The translations under genes and the position numbers were made by a program. A stretch of 64,000 nt of DNA, taken from assembly GCA_963715195.1 (NCBI GenBank), contig CAVQRT010000025.1:1-64000 (forward strand). Direction: 5' to 3'. Under the pieces are notes generated by a model. It was not told the DNA's origin. It saw nothing but the letters and a program-made list of their open reading frames with translations, and did not search any database. Positions 10,173-21,044 of this stretch are shown here, one piece after another; position 1 is the stretch's first letter; every line of letters begins with the position of its first letter. The stretch comes from Thermodesulfovibrionales bacterium (GTDB lineage Bacteria > Nitrospirota > Thermodesulfovibrionia > Thermodesulfovibrionales > SM23-35).

Positions 10173-10451
10173 ATGGAGGAAGGACAGGATGCAACGGAGA
10201 CTCCCTTGGAACACATTGGGTCACAGGACCAATTTCCCGCTGATGCCACTACAGTGAATAGCATGAAGCCGCATAGAGATGTACAAACTGTTACCGAAAT
10301 CGCCAAAGGGTTTCGTGAAAGCCTGAAAAACGTTCAAAATTATCGCCTGTCCATGCATGAAGAAATAAAGGATATCCTGAAAAAGCAGGTGGTTACTTTT
10401 GACAGAAAGGCTCTGCCGAACAGTTGGTCTCCACCTCGAGAGGAGGAATAA
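10173..10451 (+). CDS. Hypothetical protein
   Basis: 92 aa ORF with strong AAGGAGG RBS; no recognised motif. Confidence 0.5.
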   Translation: MEEGQDATETPLEHIGSQDQFPADATTVNSMKPHRDVQTVTEIAKGFRESLKNVQNYRLSMHEEIKDILKKQVVTFDRKALPNSWSPPREEE

Positions 10452-10452
10452 T

Positions 10453-10552
10453 TTGCCGATATTGGAATACGACTGGAAACAAGTGACTGTTGAAGAGGAC
10501 GACTTTCTTGTCAACTTCGAAGAATGGAACAAAAAGATTGCTCAGACATACC
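10453..10552 (+). pseudogene. N-terminal fragment of a DsrC/TusE-family sulfur carrier
   Basis: AGGAGG plus TTG start; translates MPILEYDWKQVTVEEDDFLVNFEEWNKKIAQ (cf. vDEdGFL..fddW); similarity ends at a REP-like hairpin. Confidence 0.55.
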
Positions 10553-10665: not shown

Positions 10666-11117
10666 ATGAGAAAATTATCAATTTATATGATGGTCTTAGC
10701 GATTGTCGCGGTAACCAGCTTTGCATATGCAGACGAACCTGGTTCCCCGGGCGGATACAATTACTGCCCTTATTGTGGTAGTTATATGGGACCGCAGGGT
10801 GGTCAGGGTATGGGTCCCGGCATGATGGGTGGTCAGGGTATGGGTCCCGGCATGATGGGTGGTCAGGGTAGGGTCCGGCATGATGGGGGTGGCCTGGCAT
10901 GATGGGGCGTGGCTACCAGGGACAGAGCGCGGAATGCCAGAAGTTCTATGACGAGACTGCCGGGCTCAGAAAGGAATTAAACAACAAAAGATTCGAATAT
11001 TTTGAGGCTGTCCGCAATCCGAAGACGACCGGAGAGTCTTTAACGAAGATCGGAAAAGAGGTCAGGGAATTACAGGAAAAGATCTATGCAAAAGGCCCTA
11101 TCGGTTGTTGGCAGTAA
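10666..11117 (+). CDS. Periplasmic ZraP/Spy/CpxP-like protein, split by a frameshift (probable sequencing error)
   Basis: Signal peptide, GMGPGMMGG repeats, then QKFYDETAGLRKEL in another frame. Confidence 0.75.
10798..10910 (+). repeat. 30-bp coding tandem repeat (GGQGMGPGMM)n
   Basis: ggtcagggtatgggtcccggcatgatgggt twice exactly, plus about two indel-damaged copies. Confidence 0.9.
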
Positions 11118-11308
11118 GACAATATGATGGAGGAAAAGCCGTGGCTGTGAAAGAATTCGCTGAGACCGTCATACTCCAGTCAATCGAGGACTTGTCTCCA
11201 TAGCATGCCCTTATTTTGATGATGATTTTGCTATATTTTTTGAAGAGGGTGGAGTACATTGATTTGTAGTACATTTCATAAGGCGTGTGTGCCCGGAGGT
11301 GATATCTG

Positions 11309-11530
11309 ATGGCGGAGATAAAAGTAGATTGTACCAATGAAACCTGTCCGGTTCCTTTGGTCGAAACCCGAAAAGCACTGCGAAAAGCAAAAGAGGGCGA
11401 TATCGTTATCGTCATCGGTACACATCCAGCATCGAAGAAAGAAATACCGATGGCAATTAAGGCGTTGGGACTGGAAATGCTTGATATGAAAGAAGATGGC
11501 ACTGTTTGGACAATCAGAATTCGCCGATAG
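11309..11530 (+). CDS. TusA-family sulfur carrier
   Basis: 73 aa with CPVP motif. Confidence 0.9.
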   Translation: MAEIKVDCTNETCPVPLVETRKALRKAKEGDIVIVIGTHPASKKEIPMAIKALGLEMLDMKEDGTVWTIRIRR

Positions 11531-11538
11531 GGGGAAAC

Positions 11539-11958
11539 ATGGCAAATAAAGCAACCATAATAGCACACAGTGGTGATATGGACAAAATATACAGTGCTTT
11601 AATTATTGGGAATGGGGCACTTGCTATGGGAATGGAGGCATCGATCTTTTTCACATTTTGGGGTCTTCAGCGTCTAAAAAAGGGTGGCCTGGAAAAAGGC
11701 CCTCTATCAAAAATGAATATGCTGGGGCTGGGTAAGCTGATGGTGAAGCTCAAGATGAAGAAAGTTGGGGTAGCTTCTCTGGAAAGACTTCTGCAGGACT
11801 TCAAGGAATTGGGAGGCAAAATACTTGCCTGCGACATGACGATGGAGATCATGGGCATCAAAAAAGAGGAACTGCGTGATGATCTTATTTCTGATTACTG
11901 TGCTGTCGGCACTTATGTGAATGAGGCAAAAGATTCATCTATTACTCTTTTCATCTAA
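11539..11958 (+). CDS. DsrE2/DrsH-like sulfur transfer protein
   Basis: FFTFWGL, ACDMTM conserved Cys, C-terminal TLFI. Confidence 0.9.
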   Translation: MANKATIIAHSGDMDKIYSALIIGNGALAMGMEASIFFTFWGLQRLKKGGLEKGPLSKMNMLGLGKLMVKLKMKKVGVASLERLLQDFKELGGKILACDMTMEIMGIKKEELRDDLISDYCAVGTYVNEAKDSSITLFI

Positions 11959-13140
11959 TGGGAAAAGAAGATTTGATCAGAAAACGTATATATTTCGATA
12001 ATTCTGCTGCAACTCGCATGGATGAGCGGGTGTTAGAGGCGATGAAACCATACTTCTTTGAGAATTATGCAGTTGCTACCTCAGAGTTTGCTTATTCTGA
12101 GGGCATCGATGCCAGAGAGGCTTTGGATGACGTACGTAGTGTCCTTGCTGCATCTCTTGGTGCGAATGCCGAAGAATTCATTTTTACTTCAGGAAACACC
12201 GAGTCTTCAAACCTTGCTCTTAAAGGTGTATCTCTCGCTCTCAGAAAGAAGAAAGGTACCCATATCATTACGTCCAAGATTGAGGATTTCCCGGTACTGC
12301 ATAGTGCACGAGCATTGGAAAAGCAAGGCTTCCAAGTAACGTATCTAGCAGTGGACGGCGATGGTTTTGTTGACCTTGATCAGCTGAGAGGCTCTATTAC
12401 CGACAAAACTATTTTGGTTTCGGTTCAGCATGCAAACCAGGAAATTGGTACTATCCAAGACATTGAAAATATTGGACATATCTGTAAGGAGAAAGACGTA
12501 TTATTTCATACGGATGCCACACATACCTTTACCAGACTTCCTCTTGATGTTGGACACATACCTGTTGATTTGATTACCGTATCTGCCCATACCATCCACG
12601 GACCAAAAGGTATAGGAGGTCTTTACATAAGAAAAGGAACACCAATAACCAAGTGGATGGACGGTGGCTTTCAGGAATTTGATATTCGTCCTGGCCTGGA
12701 AAATATACCCGGTGCGGCAGGTTTTGCTAGAGCAGTGGAACTGGTTACCTCAGACGAAACCCAGAGACTGCAGGCTATGCGGGATAGAATTATTGAACGA
12801 GTACTCGCCGAAATACCGAATACTACGCTCAATGGTCATCGCTGGAACCGACTTCCACAAAACGCCAATATTACGTTTCACTTTGTTGAAGGGGAATCTA
12901 TTACCTTGCATCTTGATATGCATGGGTATGCAGTAAGCACGGGTTCTGCTTGCTTTAGCCGTTCTCTTGAAAGCAGCCATGTCATTATGGGTATCGGCGG
13001 CGACCACGAAAGGGCACATGGTTCAATACGCTTTACCTTTGGACGCTATAACACCATGAGTGAGGTTGACGATATCGTTGGAACACTAGGCTGAGATAGT
13101 AAAGGAACTCAGAATAATCAGCCCACTTGGGAAAGAAAAA
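11958..13140 (+). CDS. Cysteine desulfurase (IscS/NifS) homologue lacking the PLP Schiff-base lysine; last ~16 codons frameshifted
   Basis: YFDNSAAT, FTSGNTES, STGSAC (Cys332); SAHTIHGPKG replaces SxHKxxGPKG; EIVKELRIISPL lies in +1 frame after the TGA at 13092. Confidence 0.9.
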
Positions 13141-13155
13141 ATGGAGGACAACAAA

Positions 13156-13794
13156 ATGAAATTTCCATATAGTGAAATAGTGTTAGAACACTTTCGCCAC
13201 CCGCGAAATGTGGGACAAATTGAGGATGCCGATGGGAAAGCCACTGAAGGCAGCCCTTCTTGTGGAGATATGGTTTCCGTATATATAAAAGTTGATCCTG
13301 AGAAAAAAACTATTAGTGATATCAAATTTGAATCTTATGGCTGTGCTTCAAACATTGCAACAGGTTCTATCATCACTGAACTTGCAAAGGGCAAGACGCT
13401 TGATGAAGCCAAGAAAATTAATTGGAAAACAGCTTCGGAAGCGCTTGGAGGTCTACCGAAAATAAAGGCTCATTGTTCAGTGCTGGCGGTAGAAGGTTTA
13501 CGTTCAGCGATACAGAACTACGAAGAGCGCCACGGTCTGGTCAAAGAAAAAAAACCGACAACGGAAGATGAGATACACAGGCGGCTCAGGAAAGTTATGA
13601 ATCCATTATCAGGACTGGATTTAGAGCGAACCAATTTAGTTAAAAGATGTTGCAACTTAAAGGATGGTATTGTGCGTGTTGTGATAGACCTGCCCCCCGA
13701 CCATCAGTTTTCTAATTCCATAAGGGAGGAAATAAAAGAAAAGATTGAACCGCTTTGGGATATTAAGGAAGTCAATGTCGATTTCATGGGCTGA
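13156..13794 (+). CDS. IscU/NifU-N Fe-S scaffold fused to a DUF59 (SufT/MIP18-like) domain
   Basis: YSEIVLEHF..PRNVG, CGD, GC and KAHCS motifs; C-terminal LRKVMNPLSGLDL; GGAGG RBS before ATG 13156. Confidence 0.88.
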   Translation: MKFPYSEIVLEHFRHPRNVGQIEDADGKATEGSPSCGDMVSVYIKVDPEKKTISDIKFESYGCASNIATGSIITELAKGKTLDEAKKINWKTASEALGGLPKIKAHCSVLAVEGLRSAIQNYEERHGLVKEKKPTTEDEIHRRLRKVMNPLSGLDLERTNLVKRCCNLKDGIVRVVIDLPPDHQFSNSIREEIKEKIEPLWDIKEVNVDFMG

Positions 13795-13879
13795 TTTTCT
13801 TTTCATCAGTCCTTGCTGTAACACAATGACACAGCGCATAAATTTTACGCAGGGGATACACGATTGATGGAGAAGACGT

Positions 13880-14068
13880 GTGGAAACATGTCCTGTATGT
13901 GAACAGTCTATTGATCAATGTATTTGCTGTCCGGAATGAGGGCATGTCTGCCTCCTGGATCAGGGGGCCTTATATTGTCCGGTTTGCAAACCTGAACCTG
14001 TGAAAGCTGAAAAGCGGAGCAGAGAACAAAATTTATCAAAGGAGGATGTATGGGATACACAAACGTAG
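13880..14068 (+). CDS. Candidate selenoprotein: 62-aa Cys-rich microprotein with in-frame UGA
   Basis: GGAG RBS plus GTG; METCPVCEQSIDQCICCPE*GHVCLLDQGALYCPVCKPEP...; TGA 13937-13939 sits at the second Cys of a CxxC. Confidence 0.65.
13940..13980 (+). promoter_or_regulatory. Putative bacterial SECIS element
   Basis: Lower stem gggcatgt/atattgtcc; 8-bp upper stem gcctcctg/cagggggc; G-led loop 18 nt after the UGA. Confidence 0.55.
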
Positions 14069-14301
14069 CATTAAAGGACAAGATTATGGAGATGCACCCG
14101 GAGGTTGCAAAGCATGGAATTGCAATCAGCCTTGATTTTGATACGACAAAAAATGCCTTCATTGTTAAGTTTAGGAAAGACAAGCATGAACTAACAACTC
14201 ACCTTGAGAAGAAGGATGCCGATGAATGCATGAACGGGGTAAAATGTGTCTACCTTGGCGTTCAGATAGGTCAGTTTATCAAGAATTTTGAAATAACTTA
14301 A
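14050..14301 (+). CDS. Hypothetical protein with C-x4-C motif
   Basis: 83 aa, AGGAGG RBS, ECMNGVKCVYLG. Confidence 0.75.
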   Translation: MGYTNVALKDKIMEMHPEVAKHGIAISLDFDTTKNAFIVKFRKDKHELTTHLEKKDADECMNGVKCVYLGVQIGQFIKNFEIT

Positions 14302-14582: not shown

Positions 14583-15281
14583 GTGCAGATTCCTCCCTAT
14601 CTTATAAACGAACATTATGATGACCGCTATTTCGATGTGGTCAATGCAATTGAAGAAGCGAAGCACGTCTTTTTTCGGGGTACCGACATCATGGATATCC
14701 TTTCTGCTGCAAGGTCGGGGAGGAAAGAATTCAGAATAGGTGAAACAGGCTTCGGTGCAGGCCGACTACTCATTGCCTTCATAGATTTTCTGGACAATTG
14801 CGGCATCAGGGATATAGCGATTATCTACAATTCAGTTGAACTGCATCCGGTCACTTTTGAGCGAATGGCGACCCTTCTCAGTGGATTAAGAACAGAGGTC
14901 GGTCCGCTTATTGACCTGCTTGTCCGGAAATACAGCCGCGTCGAAATTTCCAGACCGGGGTGGCACCAGATACATCTCACCCGGCCTTTTGGCATCCTGA
15001 GCTTGAATCTCTGGATTGGTGAGGCCCTCGAAATGGTCCATGCACTCACAATTCCCTGTGACGCATGGTTTCTGGATGGTCATGGACCAAAGAAGAACCC
15101 TGCCATGTGGCGGCATGAACTTCTTATGGCAATTGGAGAAAAAACAGTGACCGGAGGAATCTGTGCCACCTATACTGTTGCAGGAACCGTAAGACGGGGA
15201 CTTATCGCTGCGGGGTTTTCTGTCGAGCAACGTCCTGGTTTTGGTGGGAAAAAATCAGTGCTCAAGGGATTAAAAATGTAG
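14583..15281 (+). CDS. Stand-alone MnmC-type (MnmD) tRNA methyltransferase domain
   Basis: EEAKHVF, IGETGFGAG, DAWFLDGH.P.KNP.MW, ATYTVAG and GFGGKK motifs; start uncertain. Confidence 0.85.
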   Translation: MQIPPYLINEHYDDRYFDVVNAIEEAKHVFFRGTDIMDILSAARSGRKEFRIGETGFGAGRLLIAFIDFLDNCGIRDIAIIYNSVELHPVTFERMATLLSGLRTEVGPLIDLLVRKYSRVEISRPGWHQIHLTRPFGILSLNLWIGEALEMVHALTIPCDAWFLDGHGPKKNPAMWRHELLMAIGEKTVTGGICATYTVAGTVRRGLIAAGFSVEQRPGFGGKKSVLKGLKM

Positions 15282-18337: not shown

Positions 18338-21044
18338 CTATGCAGAAACATTATTGATAACTCTCTGAAGGTCGCTATTTATTTTACTGGCAAGAGAACG
18401 GACATAAGGCTTGAGGATAATATTATTATGGTGCCCTGGAATAGTATGGATTTCTAGATTTTCTGCAACACCTTTCCATCCCTTGTCAAATTGTAAGCGG
18501 AGAAGACCCTGAGCCTTTGCCCTGTAAAGAATGAGTCGACCATCGTAGGCATGCGGATTATAAGTGCGCATCCATTCAATAACTTGCAGTATGTAATCCT
18601 TATGTTTATGCTCATGAACTTGGGTATCGATTCTCTTAGGATATTTCTCTTGTATAATTCGGACTACTTTATTCTTCATAATTTTCCAATAATGTGAGTA
18701 CCAAAAAGGAAGGAAATAATACAGCCAGAATGGAAGATTTCTGAAAAAGTCATAGGTAAATATAGCTTTCCACCAGGAGAATGTTGTTACGCCGAAGGGG
18801 CTGACCGTGTCAATCAGGGCGACAAAGGGAACTGGTAGACGTAAGGAGTACCATCTGTTTTGCAATCTCAAAAGCAATAACTCCACCCGAGGAATACCCA
18901 ATAAGAAAATAAGGCCCATCTGGCACAATTTTTCTTATCTCATCCACATAGTATGAAGCCATTTTTTCTACAGATGAACCGAATACAGATTCGGCACTGT
19001 CAATACCATAGACAGGTTGATCGGTAGCAAGATAGTGCACGAGCTGATTGAATATCACGGCGCTTCCTGCGACATGAGGAATACAAAAAAGCGGTGGACG
19101 TGATCCATCACGCCTTATGGGGAAAACAGGAGAGCCATATTCCGCTTGATATCCCTTTTCAATAATTGCTGCGAGCTGTCTTACAGTCGGAGCCTGGAAG
19201 AGAGATGAGGGAGAGAGTCTTTTTCCGAATTCCTTCTCGATCCAGCAGAAGAGATCTATTGCTGAAATGAATCACCCCCAAATCGAAAAAATTCTTATCT
19301 ATATCACACTGATTTGTCCTGAGCACTTTAACCCAAATTTTTGCTAGCCGCTTTTCGACGTTAGTTAGCGGCTTTTTTTGAACACATATATTGCGTTGAG
19401 GTTCGACTTTTACCAAGCGCCAACAGTGCAGTGCGATCAACTTTACCGTTGGGGGTTAGGGGCATCGGTCTAAGAAAAAAGAATGCCGAGGGGATCATGT
19501 AATCAGGAAGCCATCGTTCCAGATGATCTAATAACTGGCTGTTAGAGAGTTCTCTTGCCACTGTTGGTACTAACATAAGCAACAAGGTGCATTTCTCCGT
19601 TATGGTCAATTCTTGGTCCAAGAACAACGGCATCTTGAACAGGGGGGAATTCACACAATGCAATCTCAATTTCTGCTGGTTCTACTCTGAACCCCCGGAT
19701 CTTAATTTGCGAGTCATTTCTTCCCAGATGTTCAAGAACGCCATCATCACGTATTCGACCGAGATCCCCGGTGCGGTAAATACGTTGCTCTTTTTCCGCG
19801 GGATCCTAAGGAAAACTCGTTCTGTCAGAGTTGTGGATTGGACCAGTATCCGGGACTAAGGTATCTGCTTTTCACCGCAATCTCACCAATCTGGTTAACA
19901 CCTACTTTATTGCCTTCATCATCGAGAAGAAGGATTTCTATCTCAGCGGATGCATATCCAACAGGGACTTTGCTTGCGGTATTTCCGAATCGTGATCGAA
20001 AAAATACTGAGCAAATACCCCTGCCTCAGTACAAGCTAGACTATTCATTAGGATACATTGTCAGGGAACTTTTTTTAAATAGTTCAATATCCTTTAACCT
20101 GATAGCCTCGCCGGCTAAATTAATAAGGCGAAGTTCAGGAAATTCTTTGCCTCCGGCAGATTCCTTGCAAAGTGTCGAAAAAGGGTCGGTATCGAATGGT
20201 AGACCGAAATACGGTGTGCGCCATCCAGTCGGGAAGCGACAACAATCCATCTTGTCTAACATCATAGAGGTGTAGAGAAGCCCCGTTTAGCAAAGCACCG
20301 TAAATATCCATAAGGGCTGCGGCAAATCCAAGAGAAGGCAGGAGTGAAAAACGGTCGGAATGAGTAATGCCAATACTGTTTGTATAATTGCAAATTAACT
20401 GAAGGAGATTACGATGGGTCTGCATAACTCCTTTTGGTTTTCCGGTTGAACCTGAAGTGTAAAGAATGTATGCGAGAGTCTCAGGAGATATACCCGCAGA
20501 TCCGGGTTTTCTTCGGAATATCCTTACATTCTCGTCAATGTTTAGAATAGTGACATTTTCTCTTGATATCCAATCTCTGAGTGAAAAGTTACTGTTATTT
20601 GTTACAATGAATGCGGCCCTCGAATCCTCAAGGATATAGCGAATCCTATCAGGAGGAAGAGTTGATGTGATCGGGACATATGCCTTTGCCTGCCTTTAGG
20701 ACTCCTATCATGGCAGCAAGCGCTGCAGCATCATGACCGAAGATCAACGCAACGTGCTCGTTTTCCGCTTTACATGTCGCAGAAATGGCGTGAGCGATCC
20801 GGTTTGCTTTTTTGTTCAAATCATCATAGGTGATTTGGCAGCCTTTACTATAGATCGCTCCCTTTGAGGAAAATTTTTCTACTTGTCTTTCAAAAAGTTC
20901 AGGGATAGACTTTTCTGTTTCTTCTTTCAAAAAAACCACGGAGCGAACATCGAGATGACATCACTGCGAGCAGGGATTCAGTCATGCAACAGCGGAAGAT
21001 TTCCTCTTCGTTGTAGAAGACCTTCTTCCCCAATGCACTGACAT
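18338..21044 (-). pseudogene. Stand-alone NRPS-like A-T-TE gene with many frameshifts
   Basis: [40 protein letters not shown], carrier NFFDLG and TE GYSSGG motifs spread over different frames. Confidence 0.85.

Follow-up and report, generated by a model that had tools for sequence, protein, structure and literature searches.

The 64,000-nucleotide (nt) stretch analyzed here (the window; positions 1–64,000 of contig CAVQRT010000025.1, assembly GCA_963715195.1, from a Thermodesulfovibrionales bacterium) contains a small gene that an earlier note on the same DNA had proposed as a hidden selenoprotein. The open reading frame (ORF) lies on the plus strand at 13880–14068 and encodes 62 amino acids (aa) when TGA is translated as selenocysteine (Sec, U). 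It starts with GTG at 13880, carries an in-frame UGA as codon 20 (13937–13939) and stops with TAG at 14066–14068; translated in this way it is the protein that the note had described. A Shine-Dalgarno-like (SD-like) GGAG at 13869–13872 sits 7 nt ahead of the start. The conserved core comprises residues 4–38 and is followed by a variable charged tail, the last 22 residues, which overlaps the start of the next gene at 14050. Thirty-three residues of the core carry eight Cys, the Sec, and one His (C4, C7, C14, C16, C17, U20, H22, C24, C33, and C36), and C4, C7, C16, H22, C33, and C36 are invariant across 82 family members.

An assembled DNA contig spans 13454–14500 with 21 differences from the window, and a contig from the RNA library of a relative spans 13675–14057 with 55 differences; such contigs cannot prove transcription. 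At the TGA itself (13937–13939), no difference was present among the 40 rows listed from this comparison (176 further rows exist). The comparison drew on four of 24 sequencing runs, all of which consisted of assembled contigs and not of reads.

The in-frame UGA is followed by a conserved SECIS hairpin

The minimum free energy (MFE) fold of the 49 nt from the UGA has two tiers. The fold as a whole has −19.6 kcal/mol; its lower stem extends over 13940–13980, and the upper stem has 8 bp (13950–13957 paired with 13961–13968) and closes a GAU loop 18 nt past the UGA, so the two-tier hairpin with a G-led loop claimed by the earlier note was recovered. A bacterial selenocysteine insertion sequence (bSECIS) is modeled in the text of PMC13188914 as a loop of 3–9 nt on an upper stem of 4–16 bp, with a G at loop position 1 or 2, 16–37 nt from the UGA and an MFE of at most −7.5 kcal/mol; the window hairpin agrees with this model throughout (3-nt G-led loop, 8 bp, 18 nt, −19.6 kcal/mol). 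Taken alone it is modest compared with chance (z = −1.75; 10 of 200 shuffles were equally stable), and it is the comparative data across homologues that make it convincing.

Homologues were pooled as distinct cores (codons 4–38, n = 148), without frameshifted or stopped loci (L100, L101, L107, L143, and L190), loci with too little flank, the degenerate locus L202, and the second copy in L203. Because these cores share ancestry, their counts cannot be treated as independent. Codon 20 is TGA in 107 cores and encodes Cys (TGC or TGT) in 41, which agrees with the earlier note that the UGA stands where a Cys would be expected. Counting from the U of the UGA, nt 15–19 pair with nt 27–31 in the stem common to homologues (13951–13955 and 13963–13967 in the window), with the conserved G at nt 21 (13957, the first base of a conserved GG at 13957–13958). 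This nucleotide is the third base of codon 26, where it is silent for Leu, and it is G in 105 of the 107 TGA cores compared with 12 of the 41 Cys cores. The full set of five upper-stem pairs common to homologues occurs in 80/107 TGA cores and 9/41 Cys cores. When the same proteins were resampled with synonymous codons, the hairpin reached z = −2.64 where codon 20 is TGA, compared with −0.52 where it encodes Cys. The ratio of nonsynonymous to synonymous polymorphism (pN/pS) in the pooled cores is 0.23 ahead of the UGA and 0.14 past it, which supports purifying selection acting across the Cys/His core, before as well as after the codon.

The alternation of TGA and Cys at codon 20, together with the silent G kept in TGA cores, sustains the proposal of a selenoprotein with its own SECIS, and UGA20 is almost certainly read as Sec through a SelB-binding element, as judged from these sequence comparisons. 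That the UGA is instead a true stop or an assembly error has some points in its favor: two TGA copies (L193 and L194) do not have the SECIS G, broken copies are known (L202, L143, L100/L190, and L107), and nearby genes in the window show frameshifts. The 107 distinct TGA cores, the selection past the UGA, and the SECIS-specific constraint on silent sites leave this explanation a negligible probability, and a nonsense codon at codon 20 was rejected for the family as a whole on the same three grounds.

Sec machinery and distribution of the family

The Sec machinery that the earlier note had proposed to check for is present in full: the genome encodes selA and selB above curated cut-offs as well as tRNA-Sec (selC), and its selD gene itself contains a TGA. 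Across 301 genomes of the phylum, the family was detected in 73 and selA in 154. The family occurs in 69 of the 154 selA-positive genomes and 4 of the 147 selA-negative genomes, although kin among these genomes are not independent. The best match in each of the 73 family-bearing genomes has a TGA in 55, no stop in 17, and a TAA in 1, and selA was found in 52 of the 55 genomes with TGA. In the one complete family-bearing genome (G130, 100%) in which selA, selB, and selD were not found, codon 20 is TGC.

A search of 101 related genomes gave 41 matches at E < 1e−9 in 40 genomes, the window genome included; 38 contain one TGA and three have no stop. When these were combined with a metagenome scan, codon 20 could be mapped in 97 of 100 loci (85 TGA, 10 TGT, and 2 TGC), a set that is redundant and includes the window. 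Named genomes were scanned as well; of 113 confirmed loci, 80 were retained, and codon 20 was mapped in all 80 (49 TGA, 26 TGC, and 5 TGT). By record titles, the family belongs mostly to Nitrospirota (Thermodesulfovibrionia and relatives), with an additional Deltaproteobacteria/Thermodesulfobacteriota group. The copies of anaerobic Nitrospirota have Sec or Cys; the single deltaproteobacterial group has Cys only. A profile search of 1.84 billion representative proteins returned 30 matches, of which 28, aligned or seen in full, consist of this small domain by itself, part of it, or a fusion to TadA; the weakest of the 30 is a 1,504-aa protein. Two genomes have two copies each (L203; L204 and L205); in L203, the second of these lacks two residues around the position of Sec. 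The copy at L202 (genome G089) has decayed, with stops and lost cysteines, and the other 11 of the 12 genomes of its genus show no match.

A tree built without codon 20 requires 14 changes between Sec and Cys, at least nine of which are forced by well-supported branches; the alignment has only 102 columns, SECIS columns included, and the tree is poorly resolved. Some Cys copies are 94%–96% identical to a TGA copy in DNA outside codon 20. Cys would replace Sec at small cost, which would account for the repeated exchange.

A predicted metal-binding site that includes Sec

The segment C17-x2-U20-x12-C33-x2-C36 (13928–13987) has the layout of a zinc-ribbon or rubredoxin-like knuckle pair. Residues 16–37 matched the archaeal RNA polymerase B zinc ribbon (E 0.0025) as well as the rubredoxin-named chain 4tpu (21 residues to 21, E 0.034), Pfam Zn_Ribbon_1 was matched weakly by 17 of the 82 members, and the best family member reached E 4.8e−5 against PF13240. 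Because residues 16–37 match zinc ribbons and 4tpu, C17, U20, C33, and C36 most likely bind one metal. They would form a tetrahedral site of the zinc-ribbon or rubredoxin type, M(Cys)3(Sec), which we call site A; the metal is most likely Zn and alternatively Fe. The six further conserved Cys/His residues would suffice for more, so that C4 and C7 with some of C14, C16, H22, and C24 may build either an interleaved second site or a small cluster of the Zn-thiolate type.

Compared with a thiolate, a selenolate ligand is softer and oxidizes more readily. Site A would for this reason be more reactive than an all-Cys finger and the first to respond to oxidants, polysulfide, or soft metals; attack on it would release or exchange the metal, and the microprotein would serve its anaerobic hosts as a metal/redox buffer or switch. 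We consider it probable, though well short of assured, that the family is a usually stand-alone Zn-binding microprotein of about 40 residues with a Sec-bearing site and a role of this kind. Of the metal-binding or redox microprotein suggested in the earlier note, metal binding is the best inference, with Sec at a knuckle ligand position in the zinc-ribbon matches. A bolder proposal, to which we give somewhat less than even credence, is a natural seleno-rubredoxin or seleno-zinc-cluster: a 35-residue domain in which Sec would coordinate a mononuclear Fe or Zn site directly and in which Se and S have been switched at least nine times while the other ligands stayed fixed.

Several observations weigh against a Sec-bearing metal-binding microprotein. 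The zinc-ribbon matches are weak and fall short of curated cut-offs; the window protein itself scored 15.8 bits against PF13240 (gathering threshold 25) and 17 bits against PF21349 (threshold 26.5). The two AlphaFold2 models are of low confidence, with mean predicted local distance difference test (pLDDT) scores of 67 and 72 and predicted template modeling (pTM) scores of 0.33 and 0.35. The two TGA copies without the conserved G fold only weakly (−6.0 and −5.2 kcal/mol) and may be decaying copies or true stops. The three TGA-bearing genomes without selA (86%–89% complete) show no selB either; two of them have a TGA-containing selD. Of the 17 genomes whose copy is free of stops, 16 retain selA, and Sec is therefore dispensable. 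The remaining three genomes of the genus (94%–100% complete) gave no match to the gene, and no conserved neighbor that would hint at a physiological role was found among the loci compared.

The two copies just mentioned, L193 (1841–1963) and L194 (minus strand), have TGA at codon 20 inside an otherwise Cys-containing, TadA-linked clade, and the L193 reading frame continues into TadA. Searches with the two AlphaFold2 models gave no Foldseek match at E ≤ 0.001 and no fold match at Z ≥ 2 among 48,161 chains; the models are small and metal-free, and these searches are silent on fold novelty. A Cys member placed in the ESM Atlas fell among unnamed clusters only (best 0.90).

Alternative roles for the protein

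The closest competitor to a zinc site is an iron protein, in which Fe(Cys)3(Sec) would carry single electrons at a selenium-tuned potential, for instance in defense against O2 or peroxide. The C-x2-U-x12-C-x2-C spacing fits 4tpu without a length difference, rubrerythrins gave weaker matches (E 0.49), Pfam RUBY_RBDX was matched weakly by seven of the 82 members, and most families of the phylum without selA yielded no copy of the gene. We nonetheless regard this role as unlikely: zinc-ribbon families give more and better weak matches, neighbors of the rubrerythrin, flavodiiron, or oxidoreductase type do not recur among the neighbor clusters listed, and a rubredoxin site does not need six further conserved ligands. 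Less probable again is a thiol/selenol redox protein, with C17-x-x-U20 as a catalytic pair on a scaffold that the other cysteines stabilize with Zn. The text of PMC13188914 favors redox roles for most uncharacterized prokaryotic selenoproteins and lists many CxxU families, and ten potential ligands would leave two to spare if there were two four-ligand sites. The Gly after CxxU and the second CPxC 12 residues on are the layout of a metal knuckle pair, and no thioredoxin-fold match was found in Pfam and NCBIfam profile scans.

Two further alternatives derive from neighboring genes, and both seem very improbable. The first involves TadA, a tRNA adenosine deaminase, to which the small domain might donate zinc or serve as a regulatory module. 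In-frame fusions to TadA are known (P0006, P0007, P0010, P0026, P0094, L134, L149, L151, L193, and L196), and the stop of the family gene overlaps the tadA start in L172, L173, and L187. Among the 120 nearest TadA entries, 36 are longer proteins, and 30 of these have the N-terminal pattern expected from a shifted frame of the small gene. The TadA-linked copies in the tree fall within one clade (11 rows, support 99/98), so the link is a single historical adjacency, and TadA was rejected as a general partner of the family. The free tail makes fusion by stop loss easy, single copies also run into unrelated genes (L066, L166, and L186), and the tadA matches of the window genome lie on other contigs. 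A predicted complex of a natural Cys form with its tandem TadA and Zn scored 0.01 and was used neither for nor against the idea.

The second, a shade less probable than the first, would make the protein a dedicated member of a sulfur/selenium relay encoded by the TusA-DsrE2-NifS-NifU cassette at 11309–13794 (plus strand), or a selenium-sensing leader through which UGA read-through would be coupled to the gene that follows. The selenoprotein gene is on the same strand as nifU and 85 nt after it, with no terminator-like match between them; the ORF tail overlaps the start of the next gene, and in the TadA clade the stop overlaps the tadA start. Neighbors were counted within 1.5 kb of the family gene in 136 distinct loci whose upstream flank was 500 nt or longer, and NifU was present in five and NifS in four. 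No conserved linkage to nifS, nifU, or tusA of the kind expected for a sulfur-relay operon was found. Neighborhoods differ widely from lineage to lineage, downstream genes are often convergent, and Cys forms conserve the whole protein. In related loci (L035, L037, and L038) a gene of about 75 aa is intact, and the order in L035 and L038 is a ZraP-like gene, the ~75-aa gene, the selenoprotein gene, and an 83-aa gene. In the window this ~75-aa gene is split: its first 18 codons are at 11141–11193 and its last codons at about 13831–13869. The cassette looks inserted because the two halves flank it, and if it is a later insertion, the adjacency of the selenoprotein gene to nifU is presumably accidental. 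The earlier suggestion that the gene belongs to the sulfur-relay/Fe-S operon is not supported, and operon membership was rejected as a role for the family, with NifU near only 5/136 loci and the cassette sitting in another gene; co-transcription with the cassette may still occur in the window lineage alone.

Promoters, neighboring genes and fusions

A TATAAT-like −10 box lies 4–9 nt ahead of the start in 67 of 145 copies, compared with 111 of 1,711 long ORFs of the genome, a rough control, and an SD-like word was found in only one of those 67 copies. Many copies are therefore probably leaderless with a promoter of their own. The window copy carries the SD instead of the −10 box, and a promoter scan found no sigma-70 site directly upstream of it.

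The gene that overlaps the selenoprotein tail (14050–14301, plus strand) encodes 83 aa, has no Pfam match and is a neighbor in 10 of the 136 loci. A likely paralogue is located upstream at 10185–10448, and Atlas clusters of the 83-aa protein carry the automatic name "dissimilatory sulfite reductase gamma subunit-like." At L066 the TGA-form domain runs in frame with this type of downstream gene (83 aa). In L186 and L198 the TGA-form domain is in frame with an ORF that we take from its motifs to be methyltransferase-like, and in L166 the Cys-form domain is in frame with an ORF that is presumably radical-SAM-like. The shifted-frame N termini of the TadA entries (P0057–P0154) probably reflect a systematic mis-call of the start. 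The two tadA-like matches of the window genome (G000) lie on contigs C33 and C35; contamination of this genome is 6.6%.

Other features of the window include apparent frameshifts in the NifS C terminus and in the ZraP-like gene, and, in nifU and close to it, single bases that contigs lack, all possibly assembly errors. The coordinates of these irregularities, which include a truncated gene that we assume to be TusE/DsrC-like, are 13090, 10785–10896, 10453–10548, 13148, and 13646–13662. A stand-alone MnmC2-type tRNA methyltransferase gene is present at 14583–15281 (180 bits, cut-off 136). Short minus-strand ORFs at 18338–20939 resemble, as far as we can judge from their motifs, pieces of a nonribosomal peptide synthetase (NRPS)-type adenylation/carrier/thioesterase gene.

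Discussion

The family enlarges the prokaryotic selenoproteome with a gene that is invisible to gene callers, because both halves produced by the UGA are too short; only Cys forms or shifted-frame TadA extensions of it reach protein databases. New selenoprotein families appear regularly, which limits the surprise. What sets this one apart is that Sec seems to sit in a simple metal knuckle, whereas redox roles are assumed for most selenoproteins in the catalogues. If so, the family is a natural series on what selenium buys at a simple metal site compared with a catalytic thiol. The question of Se versus S at such a site is directly testable, because the core of 35–40 residues is within reach of peptide synthesis and near-identical Sec/Cys pairs exist.

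The earlier note had not recognized the family, and the comparisons agree with it. No Pfam cut-off was passed by the window protein, no NCBIfam family (release June 2026) was matched by more than one of the 82 members at E ≤ 0.1, and none of the 119 families in Table 1 of a 2026 review (PMC13188914) is recognizable as this one. The deep-Sep survey, as summarized in PMC12013277, reported nine new families, of which six have named domains and three are hypothetical, and the latter three were set apart through their NCBIfam models alone. BSepDB is a curated set of 111 families reported before, and Nitrospir- does not occur in its main text (PMC13326102). A groundwater survey of metagenome-assembled genomes (Deng et al., 2026, Cell Rep) contains unvalidated new candidates, according to the text of PMC13188914. 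A full-text literature search found no paper on the window family among those listed; the candidates of Deng et al. (2026) and the deep-Sep and BSepDB supplements lay outside the comparison, and Deng et al. may contain the family. That this is a new selenoprotein family, carried by anaerobic bacteria of sediments and absent from the databases and the review compared, is well supported by the sequence searches.

Among known selenoproteins, the dual-CXXC family NF041197 (cut-off 40 bits) is likewise a small, Cys-rich selenoprotein of anaerobes. Its Sec lies outside CxxC, between the two motifs (RxU/GxU in the table of PMC13188914), whereas that of the window family lies inside a knuckle; NF041197 gave no match at the locus at E ≤ 1 and matched none of the 82 members at E ≤ 0.1. 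A true TGA-containing NF041197 member with its own hairpin is present elsewhere in the same genome (contig C31, 181551–181709; L110). The CC/Se motif selenoprotein NF041239 did not match at the locus, where its 40-bit cut-off was not reached. The FmdB-family zinc ribbon TIGR02605, which Table 1 of PMC13188914 gives a UxxU motif, is a precedent for Sec in a CxxC-type zinc-ribbon motif, so Sec in a zinc ribbon is not categorically new. TIGR02605 did not reach its 31.3-bit cut-off and did not match the locus even at E ≤ 1; eight FmdB-family zinc-ribbon genes above the cut-off occur elsewhere in the genome (contigs C6, C7, C16, C30, C31, and C36).

As for metal-binding proteins, bacterial SmtA-type metallothioneins are similarly very small, with about nine Cys plus His and a possible Zn cluster; the family has no metallothionein match in Pfam or NCBIfam, and a metal-regulator neighbor does not recur among the neighbor clusters listed. 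The rubrerythrin rubredoxin-like domain PF21349 and the archaeal RNA polymerase B ribbon/PF13240 share the CxxC-x12-CxxC type of knuckle pair; unlike them, the window family stands alone, has an extra N-terminal Cys-rich half, and contains Sec. Further analogues are the archaeal C(P)XCG zinc-finger micro-proteins (HVO_0758, HVO_2753) described in the text of PMC10716476, which are also shorter than 70 aa and consist of one domain with paired CPxC(G) knuckles; the zinc-binding small proteins of Methanosarcina mazei are a comparable small-protein system (text of PMC12704099). An HVO-2753-like chain matched the window family weakly (E 1.5). In contrast to the archaeal proteins, the window family is bacterial, shows no significant sequence homology to them, places Sec at a ligand position, and carries ten potential ligands that are conserved, a CxCC and an HxC insert among them. 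By analogy, we infer that it works like the archaeal C(P)XCG micro-proteins.
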